Below are positions 2,391 through 61,566 of a stretch of 64,000 nt of DNA, piece by piece. Each line of letters begins with the position of its first letter. Within the stretch, counting starts at the first letter, position 1. The translations under genes and the position numbers were made by a program. Where the stretch lies: the NCBI GenBank assembly GCA_020137815.1, contig CM035354.1, positions 5,580,001-5,644,000 of the forward strand. Direction: 5' to 3'. Under the pieces are notes generated by a model. It saw only the letters and a program-made list of their open reading frames with translations, was not told where the DNA came from and did no database searches. Source of the stretch: Hormiphora californensis. Taxonomy: Eukaryota > Animalia > Ctenophora.

Positions 2391-5300
2391 TAGTAGGGAC
2401 GATAGTGTCAGTCGATGTCAGGGATCTTAAAATTTCCCTATTCAAGTGTTCGGGGAGCCTCTCCCGAGTAAAATGCGCCCAATTAGAGCTCCAAATCTTT
2501 TCTCGTTCTCTAATTATTCGTGATTATGCTAATTATGACGTCATCAGCAACTACCAGAAATCTACGTCTCAGGACTTAAATTTTGATACTAGCTGATAGG
2601 GGACCACTAGATTAGTGGGCAAAAAAATTTTCAGGCCGATCGGAGTTATGGGCGTGGCGCTATGGCGTTTTAAAGTGTGTAATCCGGTGATGACGTCATC
2701 AAGGATTATCAAATTAGGTCAACGCGGGGGGTCGAGACCGGGTGCGTTTGATCGAGCCTGATAAGCTGATCAAAAATCTGTAGGGGTAGATCAATCCCCC
2801 AACTAGGAGCCGAGCTATTAGCATTTTTTCGATTTTTGACGAAGTCACGTGATCTAAAACACGAAAAACGCTAATAGCTCGGCTCCTAGTTGGGGGATTG
2901 ATCTACCCCTACAGATTTTTGATCAGCTTATCACGCTCGATCAAACGCACCCGGTCTCGACCCCCCGCGTTGACCTAATTTGATAATCCTTGATGACGTC
3001 ATCACCGGATTACACACTTTAAAACGCCATAGCGCCACGCCCATAACTCCGATCGGCCTGAAAATTTTTTTGCCTACTAATCTAGTGGTCCCTTATCAGC
3101 TAGTATCAAAATTTAAGCCCTAAGACGTAGATTTCTGGTAGTTGCTGATGACGTCATAATTAGCATAATCACGAATAATTAGAGAACGAGAAAAGATTGG
3201 GAGCTCTAATTGGGCGCATTTTACTCGGGAGAGGCTCCCCGAACACTTGAATAGGGAAATTGTAAGATCCCTGACATCGACTGACACTATCGTCCCTACT
3301 ACACGATTTTGCAAATTGGTCAAGAAATTATGGTCAAAAACGTCCGTCGTCCAAAAATGTGAAGAGCCGAGTGAGTGTTTACTTGGTGACCAGGTGACAT
3401 ACTGTCTGGCGCCGCGACCCATCTGAGTTGGATCCATCGCATCCTATTCTCGCTCCGCGAATAGATGTGAGATCGATCTCGGTCGCTGCGCGACCTCGAT
3501 CTCACTCAGGCATCAATGTGGCCAACCATCTGAGCGCATTGGTAATGGTAACATAGACTGTCTATTAGACACCTGGCGCGACCCCCGCACACAGGTGCCC
3601 GCTCCGCGCCAACCCAGAAAGGGTCGTTTCTTTAAAAGGATGTTGCAAAGGATGTTGCACGCGATCCACTGGATCGATTTGCATTGGTTTGTCGCAAAAG
3701 ACTAAAAATTGATCCTAATATACTGGAAAATACCCGAGAGTTTTGTCTGTCAACAGGAACTGGAAGTGGGTCAAAATTGACACTGAAGGCAAATCTATAA
3801 TCCAGTACTCACAAGGCCTCAACCTATCTCCCAATATCGTCAGACTCGACAGACTCAGTCTAAACTGCCTGGGAGTGGTGCAAAAACTCTCGGAAGCCAG
3901 ATTATAGATTTGACTTCAGTGTCAATTTTGACCCACTTCCTGTTGACAGACAAACTTCTCGGGTATTTTACAATAAACTATAGGACCAATTTGCAGTCTC
4001 ATGAAACAAGCGGGATGTAAATCGGTCCAGTGGAATTGGATCACGTGCAAGATCTCGGCAATTTCTCATTTGCCGCATACGGCGTCTAGACGGCGTCGCA
4101 ACGCCGTCTAGACGGGTTTTGATAAAATCAGCTAAAAACGGTACCAAAATTGCTTGAAACGGGTTATAGACGGTATCAGACGGTGTTGCGACGGTATCAG
4201 ACGGTCTCTAGACGGTCTCTAGCCGGTACTGTCCCGGTGTCTAGACAGTGTCTGGACGGTCTCTAGACGGTATCCGTTCAAAGTTGAGACGGCACGTCTG
4301 AAAATTGTACCAGACGTTGAGACGGACTTTTAGAACTCCGTCTGTATTTCAGACGGAGTTCTAAAAGTACGTTTAAACGCAGTCTAAAGGAAAATCGATG
4401 AACGTACCGTCTAAACAACGTCTCAACTGAAACCGGTCAACATACCGTCTAAACATCGTCTAAGCAGAATCTCGCGATTCAGTTTCAAATACCATCTAGA
4501 CAACTTCTCAAGCAATTTCGATACGAATACCGTCTAAACAACGTCTAGACAACGTCTTAAGCGAATCCGATACAATCTACCACTAATTCCAACTGGCATG
4601 GGTAATCCAGAATGGTCTTCGAAAACGGTCTAGTCTAGACATCGTTATTTTAGACGTTGTCTAGACGTTGTTTAGACGGTATTCGTATCGAAATTGCTGG
4701 AGAATTTGTCTAGACGGTATTTGAAATTGAAACTGAATCGCGAGATTCTGCTTAGATGTTGTTTAGACGGTATGTTGACCGGTTTCAGTTGAGACGTTGT
4801 TTAGACGGTACGTTCGTCGATTTTCCTTTAGACTGCGTTTAAACGTACTTTTAGAACTCCGTCTGAAATACAGACGGAGTTCTAAAAGTCCGTCTCAACG
4901 TCTGGTACAATTTTCAGACGTGCCGTCTCAACTTTGAACGGATACCGTCTAGACACCGTCCAGACACTGTCTAGACACCGGGACGGTACCGTCTAGAGAC
5001 CGTCTGATACCGTCGCAACACCGTCTATAACCCGTCTATAACCCGTCTATAACCCGTCTGATACCGTCTATAACCCGTGGCCGTTTCAAGCAATTTTGGT
5101 ACCGTTTTTAGCTGATTTTATCAAAACCCGTCTAGACGGCGTTGCGACGCCGTCTAGACGCCGTATGCGGCAAATGAGAAATTGCCGAGATCTTGCACGT
5201 GATCCAATTCCACTGGACCGATTTACATCCCGCTTGTTTCATGAGACTGCAAATTGGTCCTATAGTTTATTGTAAAATACCCGAGAAGTTTGTCTGTCAA

Positions 5301-6852
5301 CAGGAAGTGGGTCAAAATTGACACTGAAGTCAAATCTATAATCTGGCTTCCGAGAGTTTTTGCACCACTCCCAGGCAGTTTAGACTGAGTCTGTCGAGTC
5401 TGACGATATTGGGAGATAGGTTGAGGCCTTGTGAGTACTGGATTATAGATTTGCCTTCAGTGTCAATTTTGACCCACTTCCAGTTCCTGTTGACAGACAA
5501 AACTCTCGGGTATTTTCCAGTATATTAGGATCAATTTTTAGTCTTTTGCGACAAACCAATGCAAATCGATCCAGTGGATCGCGTGCAACATCCTTTGCAA
5601 CATCCTTTTAAAGAAACGACCCTTTCTGGGTTGGCGCGGAGCGGGCACCTGTGTGCGGGGGTCGCGCCAGGTGTCTAATAGACAGTCTATGTTACCATTA
5701 CCAATGCGCTCAGATGGTTGGCCACATTGATGCCTGAGTGAGATCGAGGTCGCGCAGCGACCGAGATCGATCTCACATCTATTCGCGGAGCGAGAATAGG
5801 ATGCGATGGATCCAACTCAGATGGGTCGCGGCGCCAGACAGTATGTCACCTGGTCACCAAGTAAACACTCACTCGGCTCTTCACATTTTTGGACGACGGA
5901 CGTTTTTGACCATAATTTCTTGACCAATTTGCAAAATCGTGTAGTAGGGACGATAGTGTCAGTCGATGTCAGGGATCTTACAATTTCCCTATTCAAGTGT
6001 TCGGGGAGCCTCTCCCGAGTAAAATGCGCCCAATTAGAGCTCCCAATCTTTTCTCGTTCTCTAATTATTCGTGATTATGCTAATTATGACGTCATCAGCA
6101 ACTACCAGAAATCTACGTCTTAGGGCTTAAATTTTGATACTAGCTGATAAGGGACCACTAGATTAGTAGGCAAAAAAATTTTCAGGCCGATCGGAGTTAT
6201 GGGCGTGGCGCTATGGCGTTTTAAAGTGTGTAATCCGGTGATGACGTCATCAAGGATTATCAAATTAGGTCAACGCGGGGGGTCGAGACCGGGTGCGTTT
6301 GATCGAGCGTGATAAGCTGATCAAAAATCTGTAGGGGTAGATCAATCCCCCAACTAGGAGCCGAGCTATTAGCGTTTTTCGTGTTTTAGATCACGTGACT
6401 TCGTCAAAAATCGAAAAAATGCTAATAGCTCGGCTCCTAGTTGGGGGATTGATCTACCCCTACAGATTTTTGATCAGCTTATCAGGCTCGATCAAACGCA
6501 CCCGGTCTCGACCCCCCGCGTTGACCTAATTTGATAATCCTTGATGACGTCATCACCGGATTACACACTTTAAAACGCCATAGCGCCACGCCCATAACTC
6601 CGATCGGCCTGAAAATTTTTTTGCCCACTAATCTAGTGGTCCCCTATCAGCTAGTATCAAAATTTAAGTCCTGAGACGTAGATTTCTGGTAGTTGCTGAT
6701 GACGTCATAATTAGCATAATCACGAATAATTAGAGAACGAGAAAAGATTTGGAGCTCTAATTGGGCGCATTTTACTCGGGAGAGGCTCCCCGAACACTTG
6801 AATAGGGAAATTTTAAGATCCCTGACATCGACTGACACTATCGTCCCTACTA
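2391..6852. repeat. Giant inverted repeat with arms of about 2.17 kb and a spacer at about 4558-4650, built from nested palindromic units
   Basis: tagtagggacgatagtg at 2391 pairs with cactatcgtccctacta ending at 6852. The ORF track shows identical mirrored ORFs (3120-3437 minus = 5806-6123 plus). Sub-palindromes at 2391-3301, about 3655-4050 and 4321-4370, each mirrored in the right arm. Confidence 0.95.
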
Positions 6853-7248: not shown

Positions 7249-8182
7249 ATTATTGGCTCCATTGCAACCTATTCTCGCTCCGTTTGAGTTGCAGTTACAC
7301 TAGAATCATTCATTGAATGGTCAGTGCAAGTGCCTTGGGTGAATGAATGCAGAATGAGGCTTAGTTCGTGAAACTTGATACAGGGTCCCGGAACCTTCAA
7401 TTCTTCAAATTCAATTGATTTTGTCAAATTTTTTTCCTCGTTGTGGTATTTCTACATTTTTTCGCATTTACATACTGCAGTACCCTGTAAGGCGGCGCCA
7501 TACCCCCATTTGATTCTCGACAGTGCGCTCAGATGGGGCCGTGGCGCCAGACAGGCAGACCTAGGTAGGTACACCATGCAATGGTGTTTGCTTTCAGTGA
7601 GTCAGGAATAATATTTAATCAATGGTATACCTATATATACTACCGCTCTGACGCTGAACAGTGTCAGTTAAGCCCCGATTTGCTGGCACTGTTTGGCCTG
7701 GGCGGTAGGTATCTAGCTCTTTACTTTCACCAAAGTCATTGACCGTGATTTGAGTCGGCTCCTGCATTTTACAATTTGAATACCAACAATTCAAACCATA
7801 TAAGAATTATAATAGCCAGGTTCCGCAGTAGGTACAGCTTGAACTTCAGCCTTCAGCGACATAATTTGAACATGTTTATCTTTAGGCAGCGGATTACGGG
7901 GCCCGAAAGAAAAGCCCGAACAGTCCCAAAACAAAAACTAGCCAATTTTGTTTTCGTATGCATAGGTAGGTAGGAACCTATTTCTTGAATATTCAGTTCT
8001 TAGCTTTCCACTTTATTTATTGTAATTTGTTAGGAAGGCAAACTAAAATTAATTTGAGACTTTTGCTTGGTATCTATTCCGTACTCCAAATAGGAATTAG
8101 AATGCAATATATGTAAATATTTCACTTCCCCCCTCTCTCCACACCCCTCTCTTCCCTCTCTTCTAGAATGTTGTAATTTGAG

Positions 8183-8992
8183 ATGAGTCACACACTTGTC
8201 CTGACTATCCTCCTGTTTCCTGCCTGCTTGCTTTGCGAGTGTATCTCTCTCGGACTGGACAGGATCGCCCAGCAGGCCACCCTGACCCTGACCACACCAA
8301 CCTCGTGTAAAGGAGATTACAGTGTGAAGTTGGTTGCGAAGAAACCGAAGGAAACCATTATGCAATGCTCTGTTCTGTGCCATAGAACTAGTCGAAGGAA
8401 GGCTAATCGAGGACCTAAAAAGAAAGGTGGAAAGGGTAAGTTGACCTCCTCAGATTCTGCAACCTGTACCTCCCCAAAGAACAATTATCCTGCCTGTCTG
8501 TGTAGTACATCATGCTCCAAGCGACGATGTGTGTTCTCCTGTGATTGTTATCAGGCCCTATCGGTGTTTTCACTTGACACACACTGGGAAGGAGTGAAGA
8601 GAAATGTTTGTGTGAAGAAAGTGTCTGGAGGGGGTTCCCTACATTTCTCACTGCTCCCCACTACATTAACATACAATTGCGAAAAACACTATGAACCCTG
8701 TGACCTATTGAAAGAGAACATAGGAACAGTTGATGGAATTTCATTTCCCTGTACTAAAGGCGAGAATTTGGTTATTTTGGCGTGCAATTGCTCGTGCAAA
8801 ACGAGTAAGAAACAATGTGACGTACCAGTGGAAGCTGTGAACCACAGTCGCAGTCCCATAACACAGCATCTCTTGGAATATTTAGCAACACATAGCCAAT
8901 CTCAGAGCAATCTAGTCATACCTCCAGTATATAGAGAAGAAATAAAATCGTACATTTCAAATCAAAATTTATGTGAAAAGCGTGAATCGTGA
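8183..8992 (+). CDS. Intronless orphan secreted cysteine-rich protein (269 aa)
   Basis: Hydrophobic N-terminal signal peptide (MSHTLVLTILLFPACLLCEC), about 20 Cys including CxC motifs, basic patch RRKANRGPKKKGGKGK; pyrimidine tract plus AG about 15 nt upstream of the ATG. Confidence 0.65.
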   Translation: MSHTLVLTILLFPACLLCECISLGLDRIAQQATLTLTTPTSCKGDYSVKLVAKKPKETIMQCSVLCHRTSRRKANRGPKKKGGKGKLTSSDSATCTSPKNNYPACLCSTSCSKRRCVFSCDCYQALSVFSLDTHWEGVKRNVCVKKVSGGGSLHFSLLPTTLTYNCEKHYEPCDLLKENIGTVDGISFPCTKGENLVILACNCSCKTSKKQCDVPVEAVNHSRSPITQHLLEYLATHSQSQSNLVIPPVYREEIKSYISNQNLCEKRES

Positions 8993-33665: not shown

Positions 33666-35260
<1,595 letters not shown>

Positions 35261-35357
35261 GATGAAGTTGTAAAGTTAAGCTCGAAAACAGTGACGAAAT
35301 GTAGAATCAGCCGAAGTTGGTGAACCTTAAATCCTGGTGACTTTGGTTAGGCCAAGT

Positions 35358-35371
35358 GATGCCATGGAGAT
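35358..35371 (-). promoter_or_regulatory. X-box-like motif upstream of beta-tubulin
   Basis: ATCTCCATGGCATC on the minus strand (12/14 to GTCTCCATGGCAAC), about 100 nt upstream of the ATG. Confidence 0.45.
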
Positions 35372-35892
35372 CAAAAAGTGACAAAAAGTGTTGCTACCCC
35401 CTCGGTTGCGAAATAATCAAAAATAATGTTTCAGGTAAAAAAATTTATATACTCTAATAGAAATAATTATTTGCAATTTTTTCCAATAAAAATTATAACA
35501 AAAATAATTAATTAATTAGTAATTAATCATAAAACAAATTTCTTCGTACCCTACCCCCTACAAGATCTTTTGTCAAATTTATCCAACGCGACCACCAAAT
35601 TGAGACTCTTTAATCCTTTGCCGAGAAAAGTCATTCGCGCGCGTCGTTACTTCATGCCGCGCACATCAGTATCCCGCGCGGCGGCTGGCCCGAAAACTTG
35701 GCCAAGATTTTGGGGCGGGCTTTTCAAAATTTGTCTTTCACTTTTTAAAATACAAACTTCTTCTCTTTTCATTTTGCTTTTCGACTGTAAAAATGGGACC
35801 TTAGCCGTCATTCCATACCAAAAATGTATTCCTCTATGTACAGGAGACGATTTGTTGTGTAAGAAGTAATGTCCTCTCTTGCACATCAATCA

Positions 35893-35922
35893 TCAACACT
35901 ACTTTAAACAAATTAATTTGAG
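35893..35922 (+). other. Genomic copy of the 3' 30 nt of the ctenophore spliced-leader exon
   Basis: TCAACACTACTTTAAACAAATTAATTTGAG matches the Pleurobrachia SL 3' end as I recall it (verify). It is not followed by GT, so it is not an SL RNA gene. Confidence 0.8.
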
Positions 35923-35969
35923 ATATGTCCTCAGGATGTTGAGACCGCCCGTAGGGGCAGGCAGAAGTT

Positions 35970-37028
35970 ATGACGGAGAAACTTAATACCTCTGATGCAG
36001 ATGCCGATCCACTGGAATGCTGGGATTTGTCGATGATGGAAAAACTTCGTTGTGCAGTAGAGGACGTTTTTTATATCAAGAACGGGCTCAAACAACCAAG
36101 TGAACAACAGGTTGATGGAGTATTGTCCAAGTTATTGGATTCTAGTTTGTATGATGATCCTGAGCAGTATATTGAGGACGCACTGCCGAAAGACTCCGAA
36201 ATGAAAAAGTATAATATTGATCGTTTCATGGCTTTCACCGAGAACCTCTCTCGTCATATTTTTCGGATAGTGAGAGAAATAGGACCAGTTATGAAGGAGA
36301 AACGTCTGTATGCAACTGCCCGAATGAAAGAACGCCTGGAACTAGTGGAGTGTAATCAGAAGCTCAAGGAGGTACAAGAAGAGCTTGGCACTTTTAAGGA
36401 AGAAATCGACAAACATCGGGTAGCAAGGATTGAACTGCAAGAGAAGCTGATTGAAGCACAAAATACTTTGATTGAAGTACAAGGTCGGAAACTTAGTTCA
36501 GTGTCAGAGTCTGTTCAGAAGCATTTGCAGGGCTACTCCAAGGTGCTTGTACAGAATTGCTCTGCGGCTATTGCACCATCCCGCCTCCAAGCAGCATTGA
36601 AGAAAGCGACTGTACCCCATCCAAGTACAACCGCGGAAGAAGCAACTCTTGATCGCAAGTTGAATTTGGTTATATTTGGGCTGCCAGAAACTACGGCAAG
36701 GGCTACTGAGCATGAAGTTCAGGATATCTTTGGAGAGCTCAATGAAAAACCAGTCATATCTTCTACAAAGCGTATTGGCGAAAAGACTGATAACCGACCG
36801 AGACCAGTAATTGTTACACTTGAAAGGAGGGAAACTTTGTTACAACTTCTAAGAAAAGCAAAACAGCTCCGAGATTCAGAGAAATTCTCCTCGGTGTTTC
36901 TCTCCCCCGACCTAACACCGGAGGAGCAGCGAGAGCGGAAAACTCTCGTTGATACAGTGAAAGGACTGAGGCGAGACAATCCGAATGGACGATACTGGGT
37001 TAGCAGGGGGGTAATTAAATGTGGCTGA
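35970..37028 (+). CDS. LINE ORF1p-like protein (coiled coil + RRM-like + CTD, L1/CR1/L2 type), 352 aa
   Basis: RKLNLVIFGLPE, KRIGEKTDNRPRPVIVTL, LLRKAKQLR..SVFLSPDLTPEEQRERK; heptad coiled coil at about aa 115-180; no ORF2 follows. Confidence 0.85.
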   Translation: MTEKLNTSDADADPLECWDLSMMEKLRCAVEDVFYIKNGLKQPSEQQVDGVLSKLLDSSLYDDPEQYIEDALPKDSEMKKYNIDRFMAFTENLSRHIFRIVREIGPVMKEKRLYATARMKERLELVECNQKLKEVQEELGTFKEEIDKHRVARIELQEKLIEAQNTLIEVQGRKLSSVSESVQKHLQGYSKVLVQNCSAAIAPSRLQAALKKATVPHPSTTAEEATLDRKLNLVIFGLPETTARATEHEVQDIFGELNEKPVISSTKRIGEKTDNRPRPVIVTLERRETLLQLLRKAKQLRDSEKFSSVFLSPDLTPEEQRERKTLVDTVKGLRRDNPNGRYWVSRGVIKCG

Positions 37029-37143
37029 CCTGCTACATGTAATTTGTACTCTAAAGAGACTTCAAAAGGAACCTTATGACTATCAATTTAGCCCACAAAA
37101 AGGGGCAGTATATGTTGTATTTTATCCAATATATACATTTTAG

Positions 37144-37176
<33 letters not shown>

Positions 37177-38044
37177 GGGAGCCGGGAGGTCCCCCTGAGA
37201 CACCCCAGCTGGATGATTTTAATTGATGCACCGTCATTTACTGCCACAAAAATTTGTCAAAATTGTAACTAGCAGTAAATAACTCTGCGGGCCAGGCATT
37301 TATTGCAACCCCTGGACAGCTGGGATGTCTCTGTACTGGGGGACGTCTCCCGGTGATCTCCCATGGGCCATGTTGTGGAAGATCTTTGAATTTAGTTGGT
37401 AGTTGTTCAACTTGATGTTGGGTTGAAGTTCGGCAACAAAACCCGGTTTGGAAGGTTCCAACGTTACCCGCCGCAACACAAGTCGCTAAAACAATCCGTT
37501 GGCCTTGCGCTTGGAATACCTTATCAAGTAATGCAAAGACCTAGTCTCATTTAAAGTTCTCACTGGCGACAAGATGCACTCGACAGCTTAACTAATCAGT
37601 TCTTATCTGGGCACAAATCGCTTCCAGAGATGGGAGGCTGTATGAGAAGCTCAGTAGTCTGTACAGCATGTCTAATTTATCAAGAAGGCTTGCTGCAAAA
37701 TCGATTTATTATGGTATCTGATTCTAGTTGGTTCTGATGAAGAGGTGGGTTGAATGGTTTAACTTCTCAGTCGTATTCCCAGTTGTACTCGCGACCGAGA
37801 ACACCAAGGTGTAGAATGAACTTTTTCATGTCTCATTCAGAGCATCATCCACATCATCTAGAAAAACTCTACTGTTTGTTGCTGGAAAGGGTTTCCAGAA
37901 ACGGTCATCGGTGTGGAATCTGTCAGATACGTCAAGTCGGGCAGAACTTTTCAAGCTGATTTTTCCAAGAAACTAATTGAATGAGTTGGCTCTGGAATTT
38001 CTACCAGCTAGAGCCAATTAGTCGATTTATCAGTACATAAATCA

Positions 38045-38216
38045 TAGCACTGGCAAGTGCCCCGGGCCCAAAAGGGGGGTGTGGGGGCACAGCCCCCACC
38101 ATAAACGGGGGTGTGGGGGCAGGGCCCCCACCTTAGAAATACCCTCCAACTCCAAAAACAAAAGAGAAAGCACACGCAACACTTCTACACACAAGCGCGA
38201 GAACCTGCCAGTGCTA
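38045..38216. mobile_element. Small TIR element with two GC hairpins
   Basis: tagcactggca...tgccagtgcta termini; two copies of ggggtgtgggggcNNNgcccccac. Confidence 0.5.
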
Positions 38217-41200
38217 CTATATCAGGGTGTGAACTGCATGTCGTGTTTGCTAGTCGTGAGCGCGCTTGCGAGACAAGCAAACACGTCAAGGTTCATTAAC
38301 AAGCATGCTGCTCAGTCATTTTAGATTTAATACACAATGTAAGGATACCATGTAATAGGTGAGACTCTTGCCGTCACCCTCGTTCAAGTCCCGTGAAAAA
38401 CGGAGCAGTACACGCAAACTGATGCCCATTTTCCTCGCGTGACCCCGATTCAGCAGTTTGAGACACCAACTCTTTAGGGGGCCATATCTCAGGAACCAGA
38501 CAAGATAGGAAAAATCGCCGTCTAATGAGGCGTACAGTTTTTAATCTAGTTTACCACTGTACCGGCCGTTTCACTCTCCGACCTAAAACAAAAATCGCAA
38601 CCCCACAAAACTTCAAAATAATGAAATTCGCATCTCGCATGTCGTGTTGCATGTCGTGTCATGTTATTGACGCGCTCGCGTTCAACTCTCACACAGCAGC
38701 TGCAGAACATGGCGGGAAACATCGAGGAGTAGAGAGAGGGTCGGTGCCGAATCAAATATTTCTTGATCTTGATCTATTCCATCTCTCAGCTATCCTACCC
38801 CTCATCAACTCGATCTCTCAGCTACCCTACCCCTCATCTACTCCATCTTTCAGCTACCCTACCCCTCATCTACTCCATCTTTCAGCTACCCTACCCCTTA
38901 TCTAGTCCATCTCTCAGCTACCCTACTCCTCATCTACTCCATCTCTCAGCTTCCCTATTAGGGAAGCATAGAGATGGAAACGATTAGGGGTAGGGAATCC
39001 CTATCCATAATCGTTTCCATCTCTATGCTTCCCTAGCCCTCATCAACTCCATCTTTCAGCTACCCTACCCCTAATCTAGTCCATCACTCCGCTACCCTAC
39101 TCCTCATCTACTCCATCTCTTAGCTACCCTACCTCCCATTTACTCCATCTCTCAGCTTCCCTACCTCCCATTTACTCCATCTCTCAGCTTACCTACCTCC
39201 CATTTACTCCATATCTCAGCTTCCCTACCTGCAATTTACTCCATCTCTCAGATACCCTACCTCCCATTTACTCCATCTCTCAGCTTACCTACCGGCTACC
39301 TCCCATTTACTCCATCTCTCAGCTTACCTGCCTCCCATTTACTCCATCTCTCAGCTTCCCTACCTCCCATTTACTCCATCTCTCAGCTACCCTACCTCCC
39401 ATTCACTCCATCTCTCAGGTTCCCTACCTCCCATTTACTCCATCTCTCAGCTTCCCTACCTCCCATTTACTCCATCTCTCAGCTTCCCTACCTCCCATTT
39501 ACTCCATCCTTGCCTCCCATTTACTCCATCTCTCAGCTACCCTACCTCCCATTCACTCCATCTCTCAACTACCCTACCTCCCATTTACTCCATCTCTCAG
39601 CTTCCCTACCTCCCATTTACTCCATCTCTCAGCTACCCTACCTCCCATTCACTCCATCTCTCAGCTACCCTACCTCCCATTTACTCCATCTCTCAGCTAC
39701 CCTACCTCCCATTTACTCCATCTCTCAGCTACCCTACCTCCCATTTACTCCATCTCTCAGCTTCCCTACCTCCCATTTACTCCATCTCTCAGCTACCCTA
39801 CCTCCCATTTACTCCATCTCTCAGCTACCCTACCTCCCATTTACTCCATCTCTCAGCTACCCTACCTCCCATTTACTCCATCTCTCAGCTTCCCTACCTG
39901 CCATTTACTCCATCTCTCAGCTACCCTACCTCCCATTTACTTCATCTCTCAGCTTCCCTACCTCCCATTTACTCCATCTCTCAGCTTCCCTACCTCCCAT
40001 TCACTCCATCTCTCAGCTACCCTACATCCCATTTACTCCATCTCTCAGCTACCCTACCTCCCATTTACTCCATCTCTCAGCTTCCCTACCTCCCATTTAC
40101 TCCATCTCTCAGCTACCCTACCTCCCATTTACTCCATCTCTCAGCTACCCTACCTCCCATTTACTCCATCTCTCAGCTACCCTACCTCCCATTTACTCCA
40201 TCTCTCAGCTTCCCTACCTGCCATTTACTCCATCTCTCAGCTACCCTACCTCCCATTTACTCCATCTTTCAGCTACCCTACCTCCCATTCACTCCATCTC
40301 TCAGCTACCCTACCTCCCATTTACTCCATCTCTCAGCTACCCTACCTCCCATTTACTCCATCTCTCAGCTACCCTACCTCCCATTTACTCCATCGCTTAC
40401 CTTCCCTACCTCCCATTTACTCCATCTCTCAGCTTCCCTACCTCCCATTTACTCCATCTCTTACCTTCCCTACCTCCCATTTAGTCCATCTCTCATTTAT
40501 CCTAACATTCCTACCCCTGAGAGATGGAGTAAATGGGAGGTAGGGAAGCGGAGAGATGGAGTAAATGGGTGGTAGGGTAGCTGAGAGATGGGGTAAATGA
40601 GAGGTAGGGAAGCTGAGAAATGGAGTAAATGGGAGGTAGGGTAGCTGAGAGATGGAGTAAATGGGAGGTAGGGAAGCTGAGAGATGGAGTAAATGGGAGG
40701 TAGGGAAGGTAAGTGATGGAGTAAATGGGAGGTAGGGAAGCTGAGAGATGGAGTAAATGGGAGGTAGGGAAGCTGCGAGATGGAGTAAATGGGAAGTAGG
40801 GAAGCTGAGGGATGGAGTAAATGGGAGGTAGGGAAGCTGAGAGATGGAGTAAATGGGAGGTAGGGAAGCTGAGAGATGGAGTAAATGGGAGGCAAGGATG
40901 GAGTAAATGGGAGGTAGGGAAGCTGAGGGATGGAGTAAATGGGAGGTAGGGAAGCTGAGGGATGGAGTAAATGGGAGGTAGGGAAGCTGAGAGATGGAGT
41001 AAATGGGAGGTAGGGAACCTGAGAGATGGAGTGAATGGGAGGTAGGTAAGCTGAGAGATGGAGTAAATGGGAGGTAGGGTATCTGAGAGATGGAGTAAAT
41101 GGCAGGTAGGGTAGCTGAGATATGGAGTAAATGGGAGGTAGGTAAGCTGAGAGATGGAGTAAATGGGAGGTAGGGAAGCTGAGAGATGGAGTAAATGGGA

Positions 41201-42103
41201 GGTAGGGTAGCTGAGAGATGGAGTAGATGAGGAGTAGGGTAGCGGAGAGATGGACTAGATTAGGGGTAGGGTAGCTGAAAGATGGTGTTGATGAGGGCTA
41301 GGGAAGCATAGAGATGGAAACGATTATGGATAGGGATTCCTTACCCCTAATTGTTTCCATCTCTATGCTTCCCTAATAGGGAAGCTGAGAGATGGAGTAG
41401 ATGAGGAGTAGGGTAGCTGAGAGATGGACTAGATAAGGGGTAGGGTAGCTGAAAGATGGAGTAGATGAGGGGTAGGGTAGCTGAAAGATGGAGTAGATGA
41501 GGGGTATATATAGCTGAGAGATGGAATAGATCAAGATCAAGAAATACTTGATTCGGCACCGACCCTCTCTCTACTCCTCGATGTTTCCCGCCATGTTCTG
41601 CAGCTGTTGTGTGAGAGTTGAACGCGAGCGCGTCAATAACATGACACGACATGCAACACGACATGCGAGATGCGAATTTCATTATTTTGAAGTTTTGTGG
41701 GGTTGCGATTTTTGTTTTAGGTCGGAGAGTGAAACGGCCGGTACAGTGGTAAACTAGATTAAAAACTGTACGCCTCATTAGACGGCGATTTTTCCTATCT
41801 TGTCTGGTTCCTGAGATATGGCCCCCTAAAGAGTTGGTGTCTCAAACTGCTGAATCGGGGTCACGCGAGGAAAATGGGCATCAGTTTGCGTGTACTGCTC
41901 CGTTTTTCACGGGACTTGAACGAGGGTGACGGCAAGAGTCTCACCTATTACATGGTATCCTTACATTGTGTATTAAATCTAAAATGACTGAGCAGCATGC
42001 TTGTTAATGAACCTTGACGTGTTTGCTTGTCTCGCAAGCGCGCTCACGACTAGCAAACACGACATGCAGTTCACACCCTGATATAGTAGCACTGGCAGGT
42101 TCT
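38200..42103. mobile_element. Foldback element: unique outer arms of about 580 bp plus inverted 32-bp tandem arrays, spacer about 20 bp
   Basis: 38200-38780 is the reverse complement of about 41525-42103. Unit ctacctcccatttactccatctctcagctacc runs on the plus strand at about 38780-40495 and inverted at 40518-41525. mariner-like CAGGGTG near the arm ends. Confidence 0.9.
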
Positions 42104-42407
42104 TAGCTCTCAACATTCAACAGTCAACAGTCAACAGTTCATGTTTCAACCTGCAATGGTGGACTTATTAAATGGTTAAAATCGCTCAAAAAAGAGCCCA
42201 TATGGCCAAAATTTTCCGGGGGCTTCGCCCCCTGGACCCCTACCAGGGGCTTCGCCCCTGGACCCCACTGGGGGCCTCAGGCGGCCCCCAGACCCCCTCC
42301 CCGACCGCAAACATGCTCACTCCGCCGCATTATTGGCATCCCAAATTCAGCATCCTTCCACTTAAATCAATCCAATTGGTTGGCATTTTTTCAATATTTG
42401 ATTGGGG

Positions 42408-42550
42408 GTCTCACCTATTACATGGTATCCTTACATTGTGTATTAAATCTAAAATGACTGAGCAGCATGCTTGTTAATGAACCTTGACGTGTTTGCTTGT
42501 CTCGCAAGCGCGCTCGCGACTAGCAAACACGACATGCAGTTCACACCCTG
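42408..42550. repeat. Third copy of the foldback terminal segment
   Basis: Near-identical to 41938-42080 and ends caccctg-TA. Confidence 0.85.
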
Positions 42551-42989
42551 TATATACCATTGCAGATTTCGAGGTTTTTGATGCTTTAAAAAAGCATGTT
42601 CAAGATGAAGTAGAGAGCTGAAATTTTGTACTCTAAGGGCCCTCATATACATACTGATATAGGAGAAGAGGCATGCAAATTTTCAGAACGATCGGATGTA
42701 AGGTAAAAATTTGCCAGAGGGGTCCCAAAATGCAAAAATGTAAGGAGGGGGAGGGGGAGGGGGGGGGGAGGACGCTTTTTTATCTTTGAGTGTTCTCCTA
42801 AACCACAAATAGTAGAGACTTGCCGTTTTGAACAGTGGTTCCTTACATCATTGCGCTCGGTAATAGCTGTGTGAGAACTTCGAAATCGCCATAGTTCATT
42901 AATTATTCATTAATTAGTCATTAAATATTCATTTTAACCATGGTTGCGATATGACACGACTGGAAGGTCATAAAGACTTGAAACCGGTC

Positions 42990-54165: not shown

Positions 54166-57100
54166 ATGCCAGCCACTCGTCGATCTTCATCTAGGCTGAC
54201 GAAACCAGCTGAAGAGACACCATCAGCCGAGGATCAGGATGTGAAATCTGTCCCAGAAACAGTGGTCCTAGGGTCATGTCCTGTCGAGGAATCACTGGAA
54301 GAGTCCTCAAAGTCTGGGGCATTTGAAGAGTGTGTCGAGACTTCTGCCTCTGACCAAGAACCTCCAAAGGGGGACAGTGTCCAGGACATTCCTGTTGATA
54401 CCAAAACTGATGAAGAGCCTCTGGAATCTGCCCAGGCTCAGGAGTCTTCGCAAGAATCTGTCTCTGAGCAAATTTCCCTTGAATTTAATGCCAGGGACAT
54501 TTCCCAGCAATCTTCCCAGCTATCTTCCCAGCAATCTTCCCAGGACCGATCTTCCCAGCTATCTTCCCAGCAAACTTCCCAGGACCAATCTTCGCAGCTA
54601 TCTTCCCAGCAATCTTCCCAGGACCAATCTTCGCAGCAATCTTCCCTGGACCAATCTTCGCAGCACGAGCAACTGTCGCAGCAGTCCTCCCAGCAATCGG
54701 TTGTTCCCTTAGAGGTGGTCGAAGAGGTTCCCCATGCAGCAGAGAACATTGTCCAGAATGCAGACACAGTCGAGTATGAAACACCCGTTATTGCTGATCT
54801 CCCGTTTGAACCCCCAACAACAGACATTTCCATGACTATGCCAAGCGTGGTAAAAGCCCCAGTTCTATACCGGAGTGAAGAGATCAGTGAGCCGGTAAAC
54901 TCGACTATGGAGACAGATGAACCAGCCGATGGAGCTACCATCCCAGATGGTAATGAAGATGAGGATCAACCTCCGGAGGTTGAGACATCCCCAACGGAGG
55001 AAGATTTCGAGCTTGTACCCAACCGAGAGGAGTTGGAAAAATTTTGTGATCCAAATATCGAAGAGAAGTCCAGTGCAGATCAGCCGCTATTTCAGATAGT
55101 AAAAGAGTATAAGGATAAAATCAAGCACTCCCTTTTCGGGGACGCTAAAATTTACGATGCCCGGTTCTTGGCAGAATTTGGTGATTGTCATTGGTCCCTA
55201 ATGAGGACGGGAGAGGAGGTTAATCATCATTGGGTGCGTGCCAGATCAGATCCCGCGAACTTTGGATTCGCCAAGGTCCCTAGGAGGAACATTTTCCTTG
55301 AGGTCGGATATGGGGCGGTGTCCTATCGAAATTCTTAACACTATCTCTAAGACTGTTGTTGACGGCAAACTGACGATCAAATACAGTGATTCAACCAAGA
55401 CTGCGTTTGTGTACCTTAACGCCAAATTGGTGTCAAGGGGGAAAGCTGTAGATGGAATTGGAGTGGATCCTCAAATGTCTGCTGCCCGGCAGGCTTGTAA
55501 CGCGGCTCTTGTGTGGCTAAAAGGCTGTGGTGTATCCCTTCTCCCTATCCAGCTGTTGTCCGAGAGTCGTTTCCTCAAGGTTCCGCTCAGTTCGGTGATT
55601 GGTCCGGAACTTAATATGCAGATAGAAGAACATGTCCAGCATTTCTGCAAAAAAGAGGCACTCTGGTGCCTCTTCTTCACGCTTAACAAGAAAACGACTG
55701 AGGACGGTGTGGACTGGTTGTCAAGTCTGAAAAATATCGCCCTATGCTACGGACTATCTATGGTCGTTGATAAGAGTTTGGGTTTCCTTCTCTATAAGAA
55801 GACGAATAAAGCACCTGGGTATAAGATGTCCAACAAGACTGCCACTGATCAGGACACGGTTATAGGGGATGATAATGTGATAACGGTTGACTTTAATTAC
55901 GTTCACAAGCATAGTGATAAGGGTGAGATGTGCGGTAGTTGTGGCACCAAAATACCCGATTTCGCTAATAAAGACGCAACCTTCAACATAGTAGCCCAAT
56001 GGTGTAACCTGGGTGCAGATTGGAAAGCCACCAATGCTGCATACTTGCTATACCTGACACCTAGGTGGAAGAACTTTCCAGCATTCATAGAGGAATTGCC
56101 TGGTCACCTCGATGAGCTCGGGAAGATGGGCTTTCATTTCCGGACCACTTTCCAAAGAACTTGGAAGTAGATGCTGGGAGGCAAAGTGTTCACTCTCCGG
56201 GCATGTTCTTACTAATACTTTCGAGCACAGGAGAGCCCATACCGTAGCTGAACCTAGAGCCATTTCCCAGGCCTTCTTTCTTCTGGCCAGGAAGTTCCAT
56301 TTTTATACCAATCAGCGGCATGTACCACTCAGCCGGAGGAAAACATATCAAGTGGATGATTATACCACGCTAAAGATGACAGGAATGATTGAGCATTTCC
56401 TGAGCGATCCTGATCTATGGGCCATGGACATTAGTTCGGAGCTACAGGACCGACTACATGACAGTCAGCAAGAAATGTTGAAAGCTGAAGCTCTAAAACA
56501 CCAACTCAGTATTCTCCTTAAACCTAGGATAGTGATTCTGAAAAAGACCTGTCGCCTCCATAACATCCGATTCCAGGTTCCTTCGTTTTCCAAGGAGAAG
56601 ATACCAGGTGATGTTATTGTTCACCGGAACCGGATTGTAGTCACCAAGGAACGGTTTACTTACCTAAACGATCGTGGGGAGATATTTGTCTACCTGAAGT
56701 TCGTTTTCGAAAGTTTGAAGTTCATAGATATTCTGGAATATCAGTATCCTACAAATGATGAGAGTTTGAGTCTGACCGCGGACCGCATCGGAGAGCTGGG
56801 TTATTTTGTAACCTTAGATCGGGAAAACAATGTATTCTACATTACAAAGGAGGAATCGATAAACCCCAAACCTCCTATGGAAACGAAGGTTTGTTTTTCA
56901 GTTTTCTAACCACCCCTGTTCTTTCTTTGTCCCCACTCCCCACCCCAGTTTTCCTAATGTTTTACAGCCTGCTAACAGCTCCTTTATCCCACCAGCCTCT
57001 ACCGAATAACAAGGACAGCATGGAAAAATTGAATGTCAACCATATCACCGCGGAAGTGTTGCAAAATCACAAAATGGTTGACATATTCGCGAACTTCCAG

Positions 57101-58011
57101 AACGCCCACAAGACCTGAAATGTATTTTGATGGTCCTATAAGCTCGGCTGACAGAGAACTGATCCAAACGCAGGTCGAGGGGAGGTGGAGAATAGGAACA
57201 TGGGGAAATTCGTGTATTCGTGTCTTCAAGGATGGAGCCTCTCAATCAGCTGTAAGTTCTAACATTTTTACAAGTTTTCAAAGCATAATTATCTTGGGCC
57301 CCTATCTAATATCTTGTCAATTTTTTATTAACTTACCGCACTTACCTCCCTATCCCTCTCCCTCTCAGACTGCATCGTCTGGAAAGAAGCCAGGAAAAAG
57401 GCCTAAAAAGAAGGAAACAAACAATGAAAGGGCCGAGCGGAGAAAACGATCACAATTAAAAGTGAGAGAAGGTCTTGAACGTGCCCAGGCCAGGACAGCT
57501 ACCGGGGGATATCCCTCTCTCCTTCCACAACCCTCCACTTCTCATGCCTAGACCGGCTGCTTCCACGCCCCTTCTTCTCCAACAGAACAATCCAGTCGGT
57601 ATTAAAAGGGTTGTGATCAACCATTCTGCCACCGCCCCTCCCTCTAAACGCCCATCCCTGTCGGATCCACGACCCCTATCGGATCTACGACCCCTGTCGG
57701 ATCCTCGACCCCTGTCGGAACCACGAACGAGCCTGTTACGACCATCCTACATAATGGACTCTGGCAGAAATGAGGGATACGTAGGGGGCTCCTCCAACAC
57801 CCACTCAGCCCATCCAAGCAGACAAGTTCCTGAAACATTTAACAGTCGTTCAAGTTACTCTAGCCACCAACCGTCAGAGAGCTTTAATAACCACGGGGCA
57901 CATTCGAGTAGGTCAACCGGACTTTTATCAGCCCATCCTAGTAGGCAGGTCAATTTGAATGGTAACCAGGGTTACGATAGTCACCGAACAAATTCGAGGT
58001 GGCAGCCGTAA
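54166..58011 (+). CDS. Large protein A: acidic/SSQ-repeat N-terminus plus dsRBD-like and R3H-like modules (NKRF/CARF-like); apparent frameshifts near 55320, 56165 and 57110
   Basis: Consecutive long ORFs 54163, 55238, 56112, 57033 and 57475; AFVYLNAKLVSRG..AARQACNAALVWL (dsRBD-like); MYFDGPISSADRELIQ (R3H-like). Confidence 0.5.
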
Positions 58012-58208
58012 AGAGAACATCTTGTGACATTTCCTATAAACTATTCATGTTACACAACGTTTTAAAATACTCCCCCTTTAAATGTTACGATTGATTTTTT
58101 AATATCCGAGATGTGACTCTTCTTATTCCGTCCCCACTCCCTAACACTAAAATAGCTAACCCCCGTCTTCTCATTTTAGTTCTTCCCACCCTCTCACAAG
58201 AGGGCTCC

Positions 58209-61200
58209 ATGACTCTCACCTGCGATGGAATCAAGGTGGATTATAATGCCGAGTTCAACTTGGGAAGGAAGGAAATAACGAAGTGCGGGAAATGTAATAC
58301 ATTGACTCCGAAGTTGGCCAAATATAATCCTTGCAATAGCCTAAATAGGACATGGGGTAACGTGAGGACAAATATTTCATCGGTTGCAGGGAACTACATC
58401 TTTTTTCTCATGCCCCGTTGGCAAAATTTTGAGGAATTTAGAACACAGGCTTCACACAGATATCAGGAGACTCTCAGGGTGCTGGGATTTGATTTCCAAA
58501 CAGTAACCGGGGCGCTTGGAACAAAGGGCTTTTGCCACGAGGCCAAGTGTTTTCTCAATGGGTTGGTTCTCTCCCACGTGTCTATCCACAAGAAAAAGGA
58601 GGAGGCGGCATCTGCCCTCGCATTCCTACAGAGTCTCCTTCTGCTACGACACAAGCGAGCTAACGTGCACATTAAGACCCACATCCCTTTAGCCAATAGA
58701 AAAGTGTACAGGCAGGCTGACCTGATGTCCATGAAATCTGGTGAGATAATGGATGATTTCGCTGCTAATCCAGACCTCTGGGTGATGGAACTGTCCTCTG
58801 ACGCTAGCAATGGTTTGGTGCCGGGTTGGCAGGAGGAGCTTTCTGTTTTGGCTGCACAACACAATCTGCTGGTTCAGAAGGGCAAGAATTTCTATTGTAT
58901 GAAAACAAACTGTGGTCAGCACAATGTTCGGTTTCAGGTCCCTTGCGACGGCAAACCTGGTACCATCTTCGTTCACGGGACCCACGTGGTCGTTTCCAAG
59001 GAGCGGGTATCCTTCTTCAATAGGAGCCGAGGAGGTCTCCAATACTACGTAATGTTCAGTCTTCGAAAAGCTGAAGTTTATCGAGGTTATCGACTTTTAT
59101 CACGCTGAAAATGAGGTCATTATGGATCTTCGGCTGGTGAAGGATGATGGGTTTTGTGTACACGATGAAGATATTGGTGTCGTCTATGTGGCTAGGAATC
59201 AATCTATCAACCCTCGTGATGGTGTTAACAGGGTAAGACTCTGATCGATTGCTATGTTTTTTTTGCCACTTCCTTTTTTTTCTTTAGCCAGACGCTAAGC
59301 AAACCGCATACCGCCCGGGTATTAGTAACTATGGCGCTATTGTTGTTGTTCAACAGTGGTGCCATATTGGCCAGCCGCACAGCGCCGCCCAAAGCGTTGT
59401 CCACGACGTCCAAAACACGCAAAAAAAACATTCAATTTGAGCGGAGTGCGCCTTTGACATCGTGGACAACGCTTCATGCGGGCGGCCAATATGACGGGGC
59501 ACTACTGTAAGCTCCCCCTTTCCCGATTTCGATTAAATGGCATTTGTCACTTCCTTTTCTAACAGTAACATTTCTTCCCATCCCCCAGAAACCGCCTAAA
59601 CCGGTACCAAGCTTGGACTCTGTTGACACAGTCCACGTTACCAGGGCAGCCCTTGCCAACTACACGGCTCTGTATTGCGTCACGTTTTTTAAGAAAAGTG
59701 GCCAATCTCAAGTAATCTTTGATGGTCCTCTCTCTCCCGAAAACGATGATTACTTACATAAGTTTGCACAGACTAATAATCTGAATGTGGAACAATTCCC
59801 GGACGGTGGTTTACGGATTACTAAAGACACAAATAAACGCATTGTGAGTTGACTTTTTAGGGGGTTAAGAGTATCCCAAAAAGTTGGCTCTTTTGAAACC
59901 TCCGAGTTCCGACCGACCCCCCCCCCCCCAAAGAATCATTTTTCAAAATCACCTCCACCACTTCATGACATCATCGCATCGAGTCGCAATGGGGATCCCT
60001 AATAAAGTTATGACTTGTCACCGTTGTTGAGCGGAGGGCTGAGAGTGTCTTGTCACCGCACGGTGACAGCTCACTCTCAGCCCTCCGCAAGACTACGGTG
60101 AACCATATGCTTTTAGGTACGTCCACCATGCGGTGACAAGTTACATGATCTACTCCACAAGACTAAAGTGAAAAGTCACAACTTTATTAGGGACCCCTAT
60201 CTCAACAGACACACTACTACACTGTGCTCAGTAGTACATTAAAGTACATACTGTTTCTAATTTTTCGATACCCACTTCTTCCAGGAAAACGCCTCGACCA
60301 TCAAAGTAAGGAACCGGCGATTGAAGAAACACATGAACAATCTGAAGATCCCTAAATACCCAAGTGATCAGCTGCAGCCGAGATATGAAGATGGAGCTGC
60401 TGGACCCTCTGTAGCATATGATGATGATGCTGATGATAGTGACATGTCACTGTCTCCTGAAAGGCCTCGAGAATTCGATCCCTACTTTTCAGGACAGTTT
60501 GCACCTCTTCCTCAAGAGCCGCTCAGACCCCATCCATCTAGGTTCTCCCGTCCCGGCCGGGCAGCAAATTACCCGCCTCAACCTCACCCCTACTATCATG
60601 CCACACACAATCCTGGGTATCATTCCACTAACAATGTACCAGCAGGAACCGGTGCCAGCACATCATGCTTCTACTTCTGATGCTCCCAAACTGGACGGTA
60701 TTGATACGGATGCTATAACCAATAATGTCCTATCCCGTCTTCTGGCGTCTAAGCTCGTAAAGGAGCTGGCAGATAATGGTTCTCATAAACGGCCCATAGA
60801 GTACGAAAACTCTACTTCGAGGTCATCAAAACGCCCCATGGCAGATGATAAGCGATATCCTAACGAGAGAAGGCGGCCAGAGGATTTCAACGCGGATGAT
60901 TTTCTACGGGAAAGCAGTTACGATCGAGATCGCAGATTGCAGAAAAGTGAATACGACCGAAGCGGCAATCGGAAAGAAGTTGGCTACGATCGATTTGAAA
61001 AGAGGGAGGAGCACTATCACGATCATTCTGAAACGAGGCGAGAGTACAGTAACAACCGGTATAAACGGGAACGGGAAGGCAGTTACGATAGAAGTGAAAG
61101 AAGGTATGAAAATAGCTACGACAGAAGTGAAAGAAGGCGGGTGAGCAGTTATGATCGAGACGAAAGACGAAGGGGAAGCAGTTATGATCGAGACGAAAGA

Positions 61201-61566
61201 CGGAGGGAAAGCAGTTATGATCGAGACGAAAGACGAAGGGAAAGCAGCTATGGTCGAGATGAAAGAAGTCATCCGAATTATTACGGTCAAGAGGAAGAAA
61301 GGACAAATGTTCGCGGAGAAAGGGGGTATGAACCCAGCGGTGAGCAACACATTCGTTTCCAACAAAGGGGTTTCCAAGACGGTGTTTGCGTAGGTGATCG
61401 ATACCAGAACAGCGGTTACCACGATAGAATTGGCGAATACCAAGCCGGTCATTTCTCTGACCGCCATTTAAATGACAGTGAATTTCGGGACCGTGATCGA
61501 ATTGTAACTGTAGTCCCTGAGAACACTGGTGTGCGAGTTGTTCGTCAATACACAGACAATGAGTGA
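58209..61566 (+). CDS. Large protein B, tandem paralog of A, with an RD/RS-rich C-terminal repeat; multi-exon
   Basis: Aligns by eye with A (PRWQNF/PRWKNF, HEAKCFLNG/WEAKCSLSG, NPDLWVMELSS/DPDLWAMDISS, HNVRFQVP/HNIRFQVP); R3H-like VIFDGPLSPENDDYLHKFAQTNNL; SSYDRDERRR repeats. Confidence 0.55.
59991..60197. mobile_element. Palindromic MITE in an intron
   Basis: gggga-tccctaataaagtt / aactttattagggacccc termini; internal hairpin gcggagggctgagagtg..cactctcagccctccgc. Confidence 0.7.

Follow-up and report, generated by a model that had tools for sequence, protein, structure and literature searches.

A genomic copy of a spliced-leader-capped, polyadenylated RNA encoding a predicted L1-type ORF1 protein in the ctenophore Hormiphora californensis

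Main finding

The window analysed in this study, a contiguous stretch of 64,000 nucleotides (64 kb) of ctenophore DNA, harbours on its plus strand an insert of 1.3 kb (35888-37176), which is the genomic copy of a spliced-leader (SL)-capped, polyadenylated RNA. The only protein encoded by this RNA is an L1-type ORF1 protein (ORF1p), the fold of which is predicted. The insert likely represents a member of a multicopy family and not a one-off copy, with tail and target-site duplication being read for the window copy alone. As the best explanation we propose an ORF1-only, HAL1-like family of non-autonomous retroposons, the RNA of which is SL-capped before insertion, and we regard this reading as moderately probable. 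The family is probably copied by a reverse transcriptase (RT) borrowed from another element.

As non-LTR retroelements pass through an RNA stage, they have to retain both a promoter and a defined 5' end, and the known answers to this problem are internal promoters, ribozymes and target-site promoters. If host trans-splicing defined the 5' end of a family, this would be a further answer, and one that can be tested wherever SL trans-splicing occurs in animals. Moreover, an ORF1-only family far from mammals provides a way to ask why ORF1p is kept in cis. The annotation of ctenophore genomes is also affected, since gene models fuse copies of the ORF with host genes.

Anatomy of the insert

The insert starts with the left target-site duplication AATCAT (35888-35893), the last T of which also fits the leader. 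The adjacent SL remnant (35894-35922) comprises the last 29 nt of the 44-nt leader (30 nt with the shared T), and no GT donor follows it. The 5' untranslated region (UTR) of 47 nt (35923-35969) contains an upstream ORF of 5 codons in frame with the main ORF, and an intact ORF of 352 amino acids without internal stop spans positions 35970-37028. The 3' UTR of 115 nt (37029-37143) includes the hexamer AATATA, a possible variant poly(A) signal that ends 10 nt before the tail. The tail itself is an uninterrupted run of 29 A (37144-37172), the last two of which are common to the right target-site duplication AATCAT (37171-37176).

The earlier note had proposed this very layout (AATCAT, leader, 47-nt UTR, 352-aa ORF, A29 and AATCAT), and every part was found where it had been placed. 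Only the boundaries at the two ends required correction: the T with which the 30-mer assigned to the leader begins is at the same time the final letter of the left AATCAT, and on the right the tail shares its two terminal A with the start of the second AATCAT. Hence, both ends of the insert overlap the duplication, by 1 nt (T) on the left and by 2 A on the right. A 6-bp duplication at a fixed register is expected by chance in approximately 1 in 2900 cases, or in 1 in 238 if TCAT alone is counted. Within the 64-kb window the A29 tail is the only run of A or T of at least 12 nt, and the element is present in a single copy.

Presence of the insert in genomic DNA

Positions 34900-38050 were compared with contigs from four public runs that are presumed to be DNA. 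One of these runs (X2) is possibly the window's own source, and another (X16) comes from another organism, here termed organism B. An artefact, i.e., a cDNA or a chimeric read assembled into the genome, would agree with the fact that in the four runs no single record spans the whole insert and no junction reached the bridge rule of 31 letters; the right junction was skipped as a repeat. Against an artefact stands, apart from the 6-bp duplication that flanks the insert, an X2 contig that extends from the left flank over the first 25 bases of the leader remnant, fewer than the 31 letters required by the rule, with 0 differences in 196 letters and a flank-like depth of 34. A second X2 contig starts at 37182, with 13 further letters before it, and shows 0 differences in 623, and the element body was found in all four runs compared. 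Finally, one X16 contig joins 35858 to 37275 and has the element absent; the site in organism B also lacks 133 further bases beyond the element and is not a clean empty site. The left-junction contig of X2, the contig of organism B and the duplication render an assembly artefact unlikely, and we consider it highly improbable.

The insert lies at the left edge of a 192-bp, MITE-like stretch with degenerate inverted ends of 39/49 bp (37174-37365, strand not assigned), which is part of the flank and not of the element. The left end of this stretch is missing in organism B.

The spliced-leader remnant

The 30-mer at the head of the insert had been taken for the 3' end of a ctenophore SL, and this assignment agrees with the published leader of H. 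californensis: all 30 of its letters match the 3'-terminal 30 nt of the 44-nt sequence given in PMC8527503. The expected number of chance matches of the 30-mer in the window is 4e-13. The leader is followed by AT instead of GT, and therefore it represents an exon joined to a target and not an SL RNA gene, an identity that is ruled out by the missing GT donor. As in SL-relic retrocopies, the leader remnant directly precedes a UTR and an ORF, without the SL intron. With leader remnant, UTR, ORF, A29 tail and duplication all in place, the earlier view of the insert as a retrocopy of a trans-spliced, polyadenylated RNA holds.

The window copy contains a single relic, and a related record (L001, see below) contains a single leader; tandem relics, the mark of recycling of the dinoflagellate type, were found in neither. 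An exact replacement of the leader in each round would also leave one relic.

According to the accessible text of PMC8527503, the genome of H. californensis contains 718 copies of the leader and that of Mnemiopsis leidyi 491, the leader is present on at least 56% of H. californensis Iso-Seq reads, and the hundreds of genomic copies are left unexplained there. In the DNA-like run X2, leader-matching contigs (window 35893-35925) continue into at least two other non-GT sequences, one of which starts with ATG. This genome may contain many SL retrocopies of other mRNAs, by which some of the hundreds of leader copies may be explained. A second leader-like stretch is located within the window at 8046-8059, where 12 letters equal the 3' end of the leader (14 with the next letters); it is possibly an old relic or due to chance. 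Approximately 125 bases downstream and on the same strand lies an intronless ORF of 269 amino acids (8183-8992) without a Pfam match.

Leader-like heads in related sequences

The 1041-base record L001, the protein of which is 46% identical to that of the window copy, begins with the final 26 nt of the same leader, followed by a UTR of 56 nt. For L001 and for two proteins considered below (P0056 and P0212), a DNA or RNA origin is not given, and the leader is in any case carried by at least 56% of the H. californensis Iso-Seq reads (PMC8527503). A very short upstream ORF is situated directly behind the leader in both the window copy (35925-35942, 5 codons) and L001 (34-48, 4 codons).

Three of 330 fetched proteins (P0056, P0212 and P0086; 42-76% identical to each other) share a block of 14 residues, which is preceded by a different sequence in each of them; their frame is open upstream and reads through the block. 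Among the same 330 proteins, 200 shuffled motifs yielded no match, compared with 3 for the block. In P0056 the block is followed by QEDESDV, exactly the residues that follow the leader in L001, and thus the junction is the same; in P0013 the last three residues of the block occupy the same place as in P0056. The block begins with FQT in two of the three proteins (FQTF in P0056), which by eye is the translation of letters 4-15 of the printed leader, its last codon fits GAG, and its length is 42 nt versus 41. The nucleotide compatibility of the block with the window's leader was not significant, with 515, 1007 and 578 of 2000 shuffles scoring as high. Judged by these sequence features, the block might correspond to a second variant of the leader that persists as a relic in separate places of the genome; no second leader variant of this kind was described in the literature searched. 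The N-termini of the 330 proteins yielded no peptide from a leader of the window type, and the N-terminal extensions of P0009, P0293, P0305 and P0308 have no leader-like reading.

One X2 contig matches the insert from 35906 on and has a different flank before this position, and two X16 contigs match up to 35938 and then continue into a variant UTR. These three contigs, read only in part, point in the same way. Leader-like heads thus recur in relatives, namely as the SL start of L001 and as the block shared by three proteins.

The encoded protein

The model of the 352-aa ORF, which is based on an alignment of 17 sequences, has a mean pLDDT of 73.5 and a pTM of 0.33. The predicted fold consists of N-terminal helices, a helix of approximately 120 residues (coiled coil), an RNA recognition motif (RRM, about 229-314) and a small C-terminal domain (CTD). 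With the predicted model as query, the top 11 rows of the Foldseek search are human L1 ORF1p (best E 1.1e-6), and L1 ORF1p also takes ranks 1-3 in VIA-align (Z 10.1, rmsd 2.6, 86 aligned), followed by other RRMs at Z 9.0. Accordingly modelled, the ORF has the L1 ORF1p architecture of coiled coil, RRM and C-terminal domain, and the description of the ORF as LINE ORF1p-like, previously made from the letters, is upheld by the predicted layout and by the best matches of both structure searches. The motif RhxxhE, which we take to be the trimer motif of the coiled coil, occurs in 7 of the 17 alignment rows.

Pfam recognized no family above its cut-off in the 352-aa ORF or in the ORF1 parts of its relatives, and a sequence search of solved structures with the ORF returned weak coiled-coil matches only. 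The three nearest Atlas clusters (scores 0.90-0.92) are unnamed, and Ctenophora is the phylum most commonly recorded for them. The insert was also considered as a SINE; this identity is rejected, as the insert is protein-coding and no Rfam match came near the gathering score in 35000-38200 (3 matches at chance level).

A probable multicopy family

The depth per contig, a rough measure of copy number, amounts to 523-677 for the element and 30-51 for the flanks in X2 (10-23x) and to 627-929 and 28-52, respectively, in X16 (12-33x). X2 holds at least two subfamilies of the element. Compared with the deepest X2 contigs, the window copy shows 5 differences in 547 bases and 0 in 304, figures that agree roughly with the earlier suggestion of a young insert. 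The 15 listed variants of the ORF are 6 synonymous and 9 non-synonymous ones, and purifying selection is not apparent from these counts.

A protein search yielded 16 related clusters at 41-97% identity; a further search returned 8645 representatives at E values up to 0.001, possibly including plain coiled-coil matches, the best 150 of which were examined. In a tree of 51 proteins with a midpoint root only, the window ORF falls into a supported group of 8, itself nested in a larger group of 21. The more distant relatives include proteins from M. leidyi that are 96-99% identical to each other and lie on contigs of 11.7, 15.6 and 20.9 Mb, as well as a 7-member cluster that is spread over seven contigs of 0.2-1.8 Mb. 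Some gene models fuse the ORF of the family to the host gene PSF3 or, in one M. leidyi protein, to CNRIP1, as expected of insertions beside host genes. The family seems to be spread across ctenophores. The searches of viral contigs revealed neither a relative nor the leader motif, and prokaryote genomes contained no relative; a scan of metagenomes produced 1 locus from 77 pattern matches. One family member (P0279) is filed under a “Cytophagales bacterium” MAG on a contig of 735 bases and is likely animal DNA in a bacterial bin. Thus, the element likely belongs to a multicopy family, with a depth of 10-33x in two DNA runs, 16 clusters and no RT among the family sequences examined.

L1TD1 is a mammalian example of a domesticated ORF1 gene. 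A domesticated host gene family of this type, derived from ORF1 and with abundant RNA-binding products that render its mRNAs prone to retrocopying, would turn the insert into an ordinary processed pseudogene or retrogene. The ORFs are indeed intact over deep divergence, the family seems spread across ctenophores, and the X2 leader contigs that run into unrelated non-GT sequence indicate that SL retrocopies of other mRNAs probably exist here. However, many near-identical copies per subfamily occur, with several subfamilies side by side, and their dispersed positions beside unrelated genes fit a mobile family better than orthologous host genes. The depth of 10-33x and the absence of the element at the matching site of organism B (where the 133 further bases are missing) likewise argue against a domesticated gene, and we judge this explanation to be quite improbable.

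The ORF2 question and the 3' ends

The preferred reading as an ORF1-only family requires a closer look at ORF2. The window copy encodes ORF1p and no ORF2, its tail beginning 115 nt after the stop codon, and no RT or endonuclease (EN) family was revealed in those window ORFs that were scanned with Pfam. Of 58 cluster members, 54 are found on contigs of at most 2 kb (median 1392) and 1 of the 58 on a contig of at least 3.5 kb, the type of contig not being given; for the 53 proteins of at least 300 amino acids the median non-ORF sequence is 340 bases. Two further sets of relatives were restricted to proteins of at least about 280 aa on contigs below genome scale, which retained 40/74 and 34/49 rows, respectively; contigs of at least 3.5 kb account for 2/40 and 1/34 of these. 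A profile search for longer homologues returned 1 protein among 7992 scored candidates, in which the ORF1 half is joined to host PSF3 and not to EN/RT. This outcome is weak evidence of absence. For the family as a whole the evidence is indirect, as an ORF2 would be a separate protein and invisible to protein searches.

A few distant relatives are located on longer contigs. P0080 and P0248 lie on contigs of 4370 and 4290 bases, respectively, with cluster mates on contigs of 1.3-1.5 kb, and P0109 lies on a contig of 3933 bases. Contigs of 3.9-4.4 kb are long enough for an ORF2, and those of P0080 and P0248 could be whole LINEs. Related X2 and X16 contigs diverge from the 3' UTR at 37115, where TAA repeats take the place of poly(A), the further letters numbering 94 in the median for X2; therefore, the family has more than one type of 3' end.

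The source of the insert might alternatively be an autonomous two-ORF LINE that is treated by the host in an operon-like manner, such that its ORF1 mRNA is SL-capped, polyadenylated and pasted back by the LINE's own ORF2p as dead-end copies. Trans-splicing of transcripts from transposable elements (TEs) is reported for Hydra, where it concerns approximately 30% of TE Iso-Seq reads (PMC12220107, accessible text). The contigs of P0080, P0248 and P0109 and the continuation of related contigs past the 3' UTR would also suit such a source, and its ORF2, as a separate protein, would escape protein searches. On the other hand, contigs of at least 3.5 kb are rare in all three sets (1/58, 2/40 and 1/34), gene models continue past the ORF into host genes unrelated to it, and the TAA repeats, reached approximately 90 nt after the stop in relatives, read like the end of an element. 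In view of these points, we find a two-ORF source unlikely.

Proposed cycle

For the ORF1-only retroposon family that we favour, the following cycle can be envisaged. RNA polymerase II would transcribe a source copy, starting at a promoter in the flank or in an outron. Host trans-splicing then sets the leader at a fixed junction 47-56 nt before the ATG, as is shown by the leader-UTR joint in the window copy and in L001. The RNA would then be translated and coated by its own ORF1p, similar to HAL1, for which retention of ORF1p in cis has been argued (PMC3627910, accessible text). As suggested by tail and duplication, nicking of the target and priming on the tail, with an overlap of 2 A, would be the work of the endonuclease/RT of an autonomous LINE. 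Copying stopped 14 nt short of the 5' end of the leader, at the 1-nt overlap, leaving the 6-bp duplication, as can be read from the insert itself. By analogy with LINEs, the process would amount to target-primed reverse transcription, in which the ORF2p comes from elsewhere and ORF1p is retained in cis.

Three points of this scheme are inferred: the lack of an own promoter in the element, the repeated transcription and capping of SL-capped copies, and the supply of RT in trans by a separate element. The UTR of 47 nt leaves little room for an internal promoter. Alternatively, the window copy itself could be a dead-end product of a master locus with an ordinary outron, or of an autonomous LINE. 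The window copy is oriented head to head with a beta-tubulin gene, approximately 630 bases from its start. This gene occupies 33666-35260 on the minus strand, and a GC-rich stretch between gene and insert (35640-35730) could be its promoter.

A further-reaching form of the proposal is a self-renewing head: the 3' end of the leader relic in a promoterless retroposon would itself be the next trans-splice acceptor, and read-through transcripts would be re-capped at the same junction. A branch-like motif TTAAT (35913-35917) together with the terminal AG of the relic would act as the acceptor. In favour of the proposal, the junction is the same in relatives that differ by 23-24% in protein, and it is also shared by two different heads. 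Opposed to it is the terminal triplet of the relic, GAG, which is a weak splice acceptor, as well as a CAG in L001, which is located 3 nt further on and is not used. A fixed junction would equally follow from masters with an ordinary outron. We deem the self-renewing head rather doubtful. If true, such families would explain part of the 718 (H. californensis) and 491 (M. leidyi) genomic leader copies.

Relation to known systems

HAL1 elements derive from mammalian L1 and keep the L1 5' end. In contrast, the 5' end described here consists of a host trans-spliced leader plus 47 nt and the host is a ctenophore, the likeness to HAL1 being one of function and not of shown descent from an L1-clade parent. 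This likeness extends to the coding of ORF1p only, the coiled-coil/RRM/CTD layout, the likely multicopy state, the preserved coding capacity, the tail and duplication of the window copy, and the presumed need for ORF2p in trans (PMC5753468 and PMC3627910, accessible text). M. leidyi is named in the accessible part of PMC5203782 as lacking multiple full-length L1 families.

A genomic leader remnant as the mark of an mRNA written back into DNA is familiar from the DinoSL-relic retrogenes of dinoflagellates, for which recycling and a role of the relic in expression are proposed (PMC6050394, accessible text). Those retrogenes are copies of host genes and often carry tandem relics, whereas the insert has a transposon-type cargo, one relic and an animal host. 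In parasitic flatworms, partial SL loci occur beside LTR elements and LINEs (597 loci), and it was suggested that retrotransposon RNAs receive the SL and integrate with it; this suggestion is a remark on discarded loci, and the accessible text of PMC12582326 describes no element and no ORF1-only family and includes no junction analysis. SL-bearing TE transcripts in Hydra are a further parallel (accessible text of PMC12220107). Likewise, CRE/NeSL elements are non-LTR elements joined to SL sequence in the genome, yet they code for RT as well as a restriction-like endonuclease and use SL genes as their target, while the insert lacks both enzymes and brought its own leader to an unrelated site (PMC3636483, accessible text). 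An SL-targeting retrotransposon of the CRE/NeSL type is thus rejected, as the insert has neither an ORF for RT/restriction-like endonuclease nor a GT donor.

Each ingredient of the family has a precedent: ORF1-only elements are known (HAL1), and SL-capped retrotransposon copies have already been suggested for flatworms. The literature searched, the scope of which did not extend to Repbase and most subscription papers, described neither this family nor any SL-headed element that is limited to ORF1.

Other features of the window

Three additional regions of the window are worth mentioning. Between a Brix-domain gene and Ku70, positions 54166-61566 contain packed, partly overlapping intronless ORFs (390, 286, 265, 299 and 382 aa), in which Pfam found no family above its cut-off. 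Long inverted repeats (149 bases at 98.7% and 1657 at 93%) surround an array with a period of approximately 32 bases at 38200-42556, an arrangement that is foldback-like. Finally, a near-perfect palindrome of 4.5 kb at 2391-6852 is 96% identical to its own reverse complement and is either a foldback element or an assembly artefact.
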